Translations under genes and position numbers: made by a program
Shown: one piece after another, positions 40,723-42,060 of the stretch
Layout: each line of letters opens with the position of its first letter
How positions within the stretch are numbered: position 1 is the first letter of the stretch
Assembly (NCBI GenBank): GCA_016219985.1
Contig: JACRJO010000037.1
Span: forward strand, 72,251 to 136,250
DNA: 64,000 nt
Source: Sphingobacteriales bacterium
Lineage (GTDB): Bacteria > Bacteroidota > Bacteroidia > Chitinophagales > Chitinophagaceae
Direction: 5' to 3'
The notes under the pieces: model-generated
Seen by the model: only the letters and a program-made list of their open reading frames with translations
Databases searched by the model: none
What the model was told of the DNA's origin: nothing

Positions 40723-42060
40723 TCAACTGTTAGCGAGAATAAATTTGCGCAGAAAATTCAGCGCATTCACAGCAGTCAGGTCAATATTCCGCTGCCGGTC
40801 GAAGCGGAGGTTGAGTTTCAGGGTGGCTGTTTTCTCCTTATTTCCTGCCGCGATCCAGACCGTGCCCACCGGTTTCTCCGGGCTGCCGCCATCGGGTCCC
40901 ATGATCCCGGAAGTGGCCAGGGCAAAGTCGACCTGCAGGGTTTCAATCGCTCCCTTCACCATCTCTATTACGGTTTCTTCACTCACGGCCCCGGCAGATG
41001 CCAGTGTTCCGGGTCTTACTCCCAGTACCCGCGTTTTTATTTCGTTGGCATAACTCACCACCGTTCCTTTATAATAGGCCGAAGAGCCGGGAACAGAAGT
41101 GAGGAGATGAGCGATATAACCACCGGTGCAACTTTCCGCTGTGCCCATGGTTTGCCCTTTTGCTTTCAGAATTTTCCCGACCACTATTTCCAGGCCCGCA
41201 TCTTCATCAGCCACGAGGTACTCTTTTACCAGTACCAATAATTGATTAAAATAAGGAGCCATTTCTCTTTCCAGTTCCTCCTGGTTTATTCCCCTGGCGG
41301 TCAGCCGCAGCTTCACCATTCCGTAATTGGGCAGGTAAGCCAGTTTAATATGCCCCGGAAGCGCCGCTTCGTATTCATGCAGTAATTCCGCGATCATCGA
41401 CTCTCCCTGTCCCGCGGTAAAAGCCGTCCGGTGTACAATAGCCGGCAATGTAAATTCCTGCAGCAGCTTTGGAATGACCTGGTCCCGCATCAGGCCCTTC
41501 ATTTCATGGGGTACACCGGGTAAGGAAATAAAGACGGTCATGGCCCCTTTAGCAGTGGCCCCCCTGGCACTGCCCTCCCCTTTGGGGGGATTCAGGGGGG
41601 CATTCGTCCTTGGTTTGTTAAACCACATGCCCGGTGCCGTCCCCCTTGCATTGTGCAGCACTTCACAGGTATCCGGTACTTCGGCCTGCTTCAGGTTACG
41701 TTCCAGTATCGGTCCTGTCCGGTTGTACACTTTTTCAAAAAGGTACCTGACATGAGCAAGCACCTGTTCATTGACCACCAGTTTGCCGCCGAAATAGTCA
41801 CAGAGCAGCGGTTTGGTAATATCATCCGCCGTGGGACCCAGTCCGCCGGTAATAAGGATAAGGTCGGATTGTTTTTCCTCCTCTTCCAGGGCTTTCCAGA
41901 TATCATCATAGAGATCGCCTACGGCCAGGCGGCGGTGAACCCAGATCCCGATCTTATTCAGTTCCTGTGCAATAAAAGCGGAGTTGGTATCGATGGTCTG
42001 ACCGATCAGCAGCTCGTCACCGATGGTTATTATGGAGGCATTGACAGCGGTCGTATTCAT
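40723..42060 (-). CDS. cinA: CinA-family protein (molybdopterin-binding-like domain + NMN deamidase PncC domain) with an in-frame insertion
   Basis: IGDELLIGQTIDTNS, TGGLGPTADDIT, AESCTGG motifs. Confidence 0.93.
   Translation of the reverse strand: MNTTAVNASIITIGDELLIGQTIDTNSAFIAQELNKIGIWVHRRLAVGDLYDDIWKALEEEEKQSDLILITGGLGPTADDITKPLLCDYFGGKLVVNEQVLAHVRYLFEKVYNRTGPILERNLKQAEVPDTCEVLHNARGTAPGMWFNKPRTNAPLNPPKGEGSARGATAKGAMTVFISLPGVPHEMKGLMRDQVIPKLLQEFTLPAIVHRTAFTAGQGESMIAELLHEYEAALPGHIKLAYLPNYGMVKLRLTARGINQEELEREMAPYFNQLLVLVKEYLVADEDAGLEIVVGKILKAKGQTMGTAESCTGGYIAHLLTSVPGSSAYYKGTVVSYANEIKTRVLGVRPGTLASAGAVSEETVIEMVKGAIETLQVDFALATSGIMGPDGGSPEKPVGTVWIAAGNKEKTATLKLNLRFDRQRNIDLTAVNALNFLRKFILANS

Follow-up and report, generated by a model that had tools for sequence, protein, structure and literature searches.

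A palindromic in-frame insert in the cinA gene of a Chitinophagaceae genome, very probably a remnant of a DUF559 nuclease cassette

The stretch of DNA analysed here (the window) comprises 64,000 nucleotides (nt) of a Sphingobacteriales bacterium of the family Chitinophagaceae, placed close to Terrimonas (Bacteroidota; GenBank assembly GCA_016219985.1, contig JACRJO010000037.1, positions 72,251–136,250). At 40723–42060 on the minus strand it contains an intact open reading frame of 445 amino acids (aa), a cinA gene of the bifunctional CinA/PncC type, in which a palindromic DNA segment is read in frame. Pfam assigns to the protein MoCF_biosynth (PF00994; 1.4e-30), CinA_KH (PF18146; 1e-08) and CinA (PF02464; 3.7e-53), giving an architecture of an N-terminal MoCF/COG1058 domain, a KH-like middle and a C-terminal deamidase domain. 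Every column that is invariant across 50 homologues is retained, and the motifs GGLGPTADD, PGVPHEM and ESCTGG lie in such columns. By sequence comparison, the host protein is a CinA/PncC protein with its conserved motifs intact, in agreement with an initial annotation of the window that had described the frame as unbroken and the catalytic motifs as kept.

Between GTAPGMWF and VFISLPGVPHEM the protein carries 28 residues, NKPRTNAPLNPPKGEGSARGATAKGAMT (residues 148–175, N148–T175), encoded at 41536–41619 on the minus strand and exceeding the ancestral turn of 4–5 codons by about 72 nt. The initial annotation had placed this same insert at 41536–41613, missing the first two codons, and had correctly set its 28 residues against the roughly five that are found in other CinA proteins. 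In each of nine genomes that represent other families within the order and were read at this site, the turn has 4–5 residues (for example, GMLF-KKDG-VVFISLPGVP), and ten congeners have the same short turn; the alignments identify the palindromic segment as a lineage-specific insertion. The 28-aa loop itself was found only in a strain with 98% identity (P0001) and is not broadly shared by orthologues.

Matches to the Protein Data Bank entries 6mr3 and 4ct8 cover CinA on either side of the insert; the structure of CinA from T. thermophilus (4ct8) aligns to residues 8–150 and 177–412 and has nothing opposite the insert. In an AlphaFold2 model built from 50 homologues, the mean predicted local distance difference test (pLDDT) score is 83.9 and residues 153–172 fall below 50, between strands 144–149 and 175–179. 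The model thus puts the insert in a low-confidence loop between two β-strands, much as the initial annotation had anticipated, and the insert is probably an extra disordered surface loop on an otherwise normal enzyme.

Read along the coding (minus) strand, the insert begins with a junction segment, AACAAACCAAGGACGAAT (NKPRTN; 41602–41619), followed by a left end module, GCCCCCCTGAATCCCCCCAAAGGGGAGGG (APLNPPKGEG; 41573–41601), in which a 5-nt spacer separates an outer C-run from a C6-AAA-G hairpin. An 8-nt spacer, CAGTGCCA (41565–41572), leads from the hairpin to the right terminus, which is represented by the outermost run of a right end module, GGGGGGCC (41557–41564). A tail, ACTGCTAAAGGGGCCATGACC (TAKGAMT; 41536–41556), precedes the host sequence VFISLPGVP. 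On the plus strand, the bases of the left module form a three-run layout, CCCTCCCC-TTT-GGGGGG-ATTCA-GGGGGG (41573–41600). The outer palindrome results from pairing between the right outermost run and the left module's outer C-run; its arms, GCCCCCCTG and CAGGGGGGC (41558–41566 and 41593–41601), are 9 nt long, 26 nt apart and 100% complementary, exactly as first reported. Inside them, a C-run/G-run hairpin is present at 41577–41589 in the plus-strand form CCCC-TTT-GGGGGG, with a loop of 3 nt (5 nt as folded), and not in the form CCCC-N5-GGGG that had been described. Tryptic peptides derivable from the insert include TNAPLNPPK and GAMTVFISLPGVPHEMK.

The same site is occupied by far longer sequences in close relatives. 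Four congeners (G005, G016, G018 and G023) carry 164–197 extra in-frame residues at the CinA turn, and full inserts match the Pfam family DUF559 with E values of 4e-34 and 2.5e-33 (117.2 and 114.6 bits; cut-off, 20.6). We surveyed 118 parsed sequences of the best 120 CinA homologues, which come from Chitinophagaceae and 'Sphingobacteriales' metagenome genomes and share 60–98% identity. The turn is short (empty) in 32 of the 118, holds a remnant of 8–65 extra residues in 34 and holds a full insert of 159–204 residues with DUF559 in 52. Although full inserts average only 59% mutual identity, FRRQH, D230, E241, D243 and H247 are invariant in 45 aligned cassette-bearing CinAs; on this comparative evidence, the DUF559 domain of the full cassettes is under selection. 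In a model of one full-cassette protein (P0038), low-confidence linkers (150–176 and 296–315) flank a folded α/β domain between the same CinA strands; together with the continuous frame, this suggests that the nuclease is retained within the host protein. An intein was considered and rejected: the Pfam matches of full inserts are confined to DUF559 and MTES_1575 and include no Hint domain, and the junctions ..F-RK|APLDPP.. and ..GFRGAGS|LF.. lack the nucleophile and His-Asn residues that intein splicing requires. In one further congener (G001), the cinA assembly breaks exactly at the insert site, between contigs C27 (start) and C75 (end), one of which opens ..EGLGEASPAGGGAAIF..; this suggests that a repeated cassette halted the assembly.

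The full cassettes have symmetrical ends. In G016, the left end is GCCCCCCTAGATCCCCCTCTAGGGGGGAC and the right end is GTCCCCCCTGGAGGGGGATTTAGGGGGGC, the reverse complement of which, GCCCCCCTAAATCCCCCTCCAGGGGGGAC, equals the left end save for a few loop bases; the two ends are therefore inverted repeats of about 29 nt, each with its own C-run/G-run hairpin. Translated in frame, cassette ends encode peptides of the APLNPPxGG and PPxGGFRGA types, and a variant module, GCCTCCCCAAACCCCTCCAAAGGAGGGGC (SPNPSKGGA or PPSEGLGEA), substitutes for one end in G018 and G023. Right ends read ...GGGGGGTGGGGGGGCC in P0038 and P0005 and ...ATTTAGGGGGGC in G016 and G018. One cassette lineage starts (Y/S)KPR(T/S)x-APLNPPKGG and finishes SPPLGGGGA(ST), and it is with the full cassettes of this lineage ('YKPRTI / SKPRSN + APLNPPKGG') that the genome under study (G000) has its NKPRTN junction segment in common.

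We compared the DNA of two members of that lineage, P0038 (locus L066) and P0005 (L067), with the insert. An alignment without gaps that starts in the host flank, crosses the NKPRTN junction and reaches into the hairpin shows the G000 sequence to be identical at 40 of 47 nt to P0038 and at 41 of 49 nt to P0005, and its left module matches the left ends of the full cassettes of P0038, P0005 and G016. The hairpin with the outer G-run (CCCCCCAAAGGGGAGGG-CAGTGCCA-GGGGGGCC-ACTGCTAA) aligns to the right module of P0038 and P0005 (CCCCCCTTTGGGGGG-T-GGGGGGGCC-TTTGCCAA). In the alignment to the P0038 right module, the 8-nt spacer has no counterpart in full cassettes; the 21-nt tail can be aligned loosely with TTTGCCAACACC, the tail of P0038, and, from this weak similarity, may correspond to it. 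Comparison of filled and empty sites revealed no target-site duplication beside the cassettes of G016, P0005 and P0038 or beside the G000 insert.

This homology bears on a chance origin of the palindrome, in which a loop expansion of the ordinary kind, or slippage during replication of G/C runs, became palindromic incidentally. The fold energy would permit it: at −20.5 kcal/mol the insert has a z-score of −2.3 and is equalled by 3 of 200 shuffles, which is only modestly unusual and proves nothing alone, and the case against chance thus rests on homology. An ungapped identity of 84–85% over 47–49 nt to cassette ends at the same site in other genomes, together with recurrence of the module in the genes for leucyl-tRNA synthetase (LeuRS), adenine deaminase and MetH and at two intergenic sites, already contradicts a chance origin, and we regard such an origin as scarcely credible.

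We conclude that the CinA insert is very probably a non-mobile remnant of a DUF559 nuclease cassette. An ancestor would have carried, in the turn between two β-strands of the CinA N-terminal domain, a DUF559 frame (Vsr-like, PD-(D/E)xK) that lay between inverted C-run/G-run hairpin modules and was in frame with cinA. We infer that the nuclease part, of about 450 bp, was lost through an internal deletion, probably between the two end hairpins, which are nearly identical (CCCCCC-N3-GGGGGG). It would have spared the junction of host and cassette, the left module and, from the right module, the outermost G-run. Since the cassette ends are inverted repeats, their fusion would yield a nested palindrome. 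The remnant would be translated as a Pro/Gly/Ala-rich loop, probably disordered and tolerated by CinA, and in this genome it is probably no longer mobile and without a function of its own.

Trees of the host protein, computed from CinA with the insert removed, place short forms among full ones. Remnant P0097 (TKP..AAQSPPLGGGGAST) falls within the clade that full 'YKPR' cassettes form (support, 100/96); P0032, which has lost the nuclease and kept the left end KSPPAxxKAPLNPPQG, is sister to the full P0018 (100/92); and P0006 is sister to the full P0107 (100/100). The remnants align to full cassettes with single internal gaps, P0097 keeping TKP and the right end and P0074 keeping both ends. Judged by these alignments, short forms demonstrably arise by deletion from full cassettes. 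G000, its 98%-identical strain P0001 and the genomes G012 and G019 form one clade (99–100% support), all with short homologous remnants; those of G012 and G019 are 18 aa long and strongly diverged, with an eroded palindrome.

Several observations weigh against this history. The CinA insert of G000 holds no trace of nuclease-coding sequence or of DUF559 residues, so that the order of events, cassette first and then deletion, rests on the relatives and on the shared junction. The tree, a polytomy at this point, does not recover the G000 clade as the sister of those hosts that carry the junction-sharing cassette lineage. A simple collapse of two hairpins does not explain the 8-nt spacer and the 21-nt tail. 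Finally, empty alleles are interspersed among full and remnant alleles, and allele replacement by recombination therefore complicates a simple history.

In a nuclease tree from which the LeuRS cassettes were left out, the in-frame cassettes of CinA, MetH and adenine deaminase form one clade (100/97), apart from free-standing types, and the adenine-deaminase cassette is nested within those of CinA (99/91). The host tree is in strong conflict with two of the nuclease clades seen among 51 CinA cassettes, and well-supported sister hosts such as P0027 and P0048 (100/99) carry nucleases of different clades. When the hosts of one nuclease clade are constrained to be monophyletic, the approximately unbiased (AU) test rejects the constraint for clade A and for clade B (p = 1e-6 and 1e-68), and with it a single ancient insertion followed by purely vertical descent; the 'YKPR' nuclease clade agrees with its hosts, and vertical descent is not rejected there. 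Given the nesting in the nuclease tree and the conflict with the hosts, the phylogenies indicate that cassettes entered several genes and were exchanged among lineages at the CinA site, driven either by their own nuclease or by ordinary recombination.

Within the 4.0-Mb genome, BLAST and fuzzy matching with up to 10 mismatches found no second copy of the 78-mer or of its 44-nt core. The insert is therefore not a copy of a dispersed palindromic repeat comparable to the Rickettsia palindromic elements (RPEs), as had been proposed; related hairpin modules are nevertheless present elsewhere in the genome, both between genes and in frame. A 23-nt module motif occurs at three sites genome-wide, including CinA, and intergenic module copies at C15:68035–68056 and C37:4617–4639 have the form GGCCCCCTAAATCCCCC(G)AAGGGGGAC. 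The likeness to a CCCCCTnAATCCCCC-type intergenic repeat that the initial annotation had noted is borne out: the pattern CCCCCTnAATCCCCC..AAGGGG lies at two intergenic sites as well as in CinA, and the reversed-pattern control returned zero sites in the genome. A strict genome scan for the three-run layout gave no match, its filters being too tight, and a relaxed scan gave 18 matches against 10 in a reversed-sequence control; this count is weak, and only individually checked matches are used here.

Other housekeeping genes of G000 hold parallel remnants in frame. The LeuRS gene (C17:84710–84778, minus strand) has KRPPLSPPKGEE where G001, G002, G008 and G018 carry full cassettes, that of G018 opening RKPPLTPPKGEN before the nuclease. 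Further on, at C17:83966–84040 (minus strand), it has a second in-frame hairpin peptide, LPSPEGEGLGVRE, the DNA of which (CCCCTCTCC-TGAA-GGAGAGGGG-CTG-GGGGTGAGGG) is coding and comes closer than the CinA module to the layout of the E. coli TMECO repeats discussed below. Adenine deaminase (C20:309570–309590) has a two-ended remnant of 37 aa, PPPPEGGL...ASPLEGFGEA, at the site of a full cassette in G015. The metH gene (C3:62569–64605, minus strand) contains an internally deleted, in-frame cassette that retains the left flank and some 35 residues from the C-terminal tail of the nuclease, including QYGPSPGTGPKNEE and the tail ..LFQTGQTLEKNLAALTGQPGLKDSSELSSPSGEQGA; full cassettes are present in G012, G019 and G002. 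Similar hairpin peptides (PPPPEGGF and VSPLGGDLEGA) were also seen at C20:79535–79554 and C33:3739–3767; one lies within a FadB-like frame and the other close to the beginning of a frame that resembles a recombinase.

The sole DUF559 gene of the genome is free-standing and of another subtype (C6:142812–143117). It is enclosed (C6:142560–143330) by a TTACGCC..CCCCCG-N-CGGGGG hairpin..GGGGTGGAC sequence and the inverse of that sequence, and gene-less copies of about 190 bp with the same ends lie at C2:63780–63970, C20:62590–62780, C20:121429, C23:52221, C25:361021 and C7:246. The CCCCCG..CGGGGG hairpin occurs at 16 loci, compared with an estimate of about one expected. By analogy, the gene and its miniatures look like the pairing of repetitive extragenic palindromic (REP) sequences, or their doublets (REPINs), with REP-associated tyrosine transposases (RAYTs), with a different enzyme in the place of the transposase.

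These miniatures, which share both ends with the C6 DUF559 gene (for example, at C2:63780–63970 and C20:62590–62780), together with the solo modules between genes (C15:68035 and C37:4617) and the lack of nuclease-derived residues in the insert, are what would be expected if the hairpin had come first, that is, if a short palindrome was a non-autonomous mobile unit resembling a miniature inverted-repeat transposable element (MITE) or an RPE, into the centre of which, in other lineages, a DUF559 gene later homed, with the G000 insert as an unoccupied landing pad. We consider this order of events unlikely. The 78-mer has no second copy; short forms nest in full-cassette clades and keep one end or the other, as deletions would; the NKPRTN and APLNPPKG junction is common to full cassettes; and the MetH remnant of the same genome, with its 35 or so C-terminal nuclease residues, cannot be an empty landing pad.

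A third account would have the insert recruited for a host function, for example as a CinA loop involved in regulation or interaction, or as a signal at the DNA or RNA level within the gene. It is in frame, nearly unchanged in the 98%-identical strain P0001 and surrounded by a fully conserved cinA. The closest other species (G012 and G019), however, have a shorter, diverged version of 18 aa in which the palindrome is destroyed, remnants in homologues form a continuous range of lengths (8–65 aa) and share no conserved motif, and predicted confidence along the loop is below 50. At the level of RNA, Rfam has no match to a known family at E ≤ 1 within 41000–42200, and an intrinsic terminator inside cinA was rejected: the only terminator-like matches are weak and antisense, and the coding strand has no T-rich tail. 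We judge recruitment to be highly improbable.

The RPEs, described by Ogata et al. (2000 and 2002) and summarised in PMC10969869, are repeats of about 100–150 bp that number in the tens in a genome and for which no enzyme gene is known. The CinA insert resembles them in being palindromic DNA that lies in frame in a housekeeping gene, with an extra peptide tolerated at the (predicted) surface and the host gene intact. It differs from them in being single-copy rather than present many times per genome, in its length of 72–84 bp and in having same-site relatives with a nuclease domain; its host belongs to the Chitinophagaceae (Bacteroidota) and not to Rickettsia, and the likeness is one of outcome. 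The parallel drawn in the initial annotation therefore holds for the addition of a peptide segment without breakage of the protein, and not for the nature of the element, a remnant of a larger cassette.

The BoxC/PIT/TM intrastrand-triplex repeats consist of a pyrimidine run, a complementary purine run and a second purine run with short loops between them (consensus, CCCTCNCCC N3-6 GGGNGAGGG N3 GGGNGAGGG; PMC4666352). The CinA module has the same three-run layout with G/C-rich runs, but its runs are C6/G6 rather than CCCTCNCCC/GGGNGAGGG and it is coding. The TMECO repeats are described as invariably intergenic and as lacking an associated mobility gene (PMC4666352), whereas the CinA module lies in a coding frame and flanks a nuclease gene in relatives. 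TM repeats have been reported as hot spots of local sequence change (PMC4666352), which fits a deletion between cassette ends. In E. coli K-12 (L098, NC_000913.3), TMECO no. 9 (1351205–1351239) lies 168 bp past the 3′ end of the DUF559 gene ycjD (1351407–1351760).

Like MITEs, which derive by internal deletion from transposons that have terminal inverted repeats, the CinA insert is small and shares inverted termini (the 9-nt arms and the left module) with a longer, enzyme-encoding element. Unlike MITEs, it shows no target-site duplication, is single-copy and gives no sign that the short form ever moved, and its long form encodes a Vsr-like nuclease and not a member of a known transposase family. 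The C6 DUF559 gene, single-copy and flanked by inverted hairpin repeats that are also dispersed as ~190-bp miniatures, recalls the REP/REPIN and RAYT system. RAYTs are HUH/Y1 transposases and REPs are extragenic; here the enzyme is a DUF559 protein of the PD-(D/E)xK type, and modules also occur in frame within genes.

The closest functional analogy for the parent element is with homing endonucleases. Its nuclease gene occupies one conserved housekeeping site with a patchy distribution among close relatives, the nuclease and host phylogenies disagree (AU p = 1e-6 and 1e-68) and the element decays after fixation, in keeping with the homing cycle. Unlike the homing endonuclease genes of inteins and group I introns, the parent cassette has no intein and no sign of an intron, and its frame is continuous; no splicing element is present. 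A natural comparison is I-Bth0305I, a Vsr-like EDxHD homing enzyme. Group 58 ('VSR, DUF559, DUF2726') in PMC3424549 includes a group I intron homing endonuclease.

In the literature searched, we met no account of DUF559 cassettes that are in frame and bounded by hairpins, and the parent element is apparently undescribed. More tentatively, and with slightly less than even confidence, we propose a new class of mobile element: a hairpin-ended cassette with a DUF559/Vsr-like nuclease of about 110 aa as its sole gene, translated as an inserted domain in housekeeping genes with its ends serving as Pro/Gly linkers, that would spread between alleles and genes and decay to RPE-like loops and to solo repeats of the BoxC/PIT/TM type. 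The CinA palindrome would be its fossil. If such a class exists, the long-unexplained BoxC/PIT/TM repeats would gain a partner enzyme.

Taken alone, the insert would be no more than a harmless additional loop; what makes it valuable is that it is a dated and well-anchored fossil. One site in one gene of one genus presents an empty state, a full nuclease cassette read in frame, a two-ended remnant, a one-ended remnant and a nearly erased scar. The series offers a concrete origin for peptide segments encoded by palindromes, of which the Rickettsia cases have no known source element, and it links such segments to the three-run BoxC/PIT/TM repeats and to DUF559, a very common domain whose function is unknown. 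The cinA alleles with and without a cassette constitute natural pairs of donor and recipient.

Further DUF559 frames were seen next to other genes: at L049 (G022), L057 (G008) and L065 (G040), they run free of stops into the start of argB (N-terminal) or follow the end of hemE (C-terminal), and these candidate argB and hemE fusions have junction peptides encoded by hairpins. The window also contains a different, REP-like family of intergenic palindromes (CCTGCCTGCC..GGCAGGCAGG), at 42093–42138, 38426, 54917, 54963, 55005 and 57714; in the copy just upstream of cinA, a second hairpin is nested in the loop.

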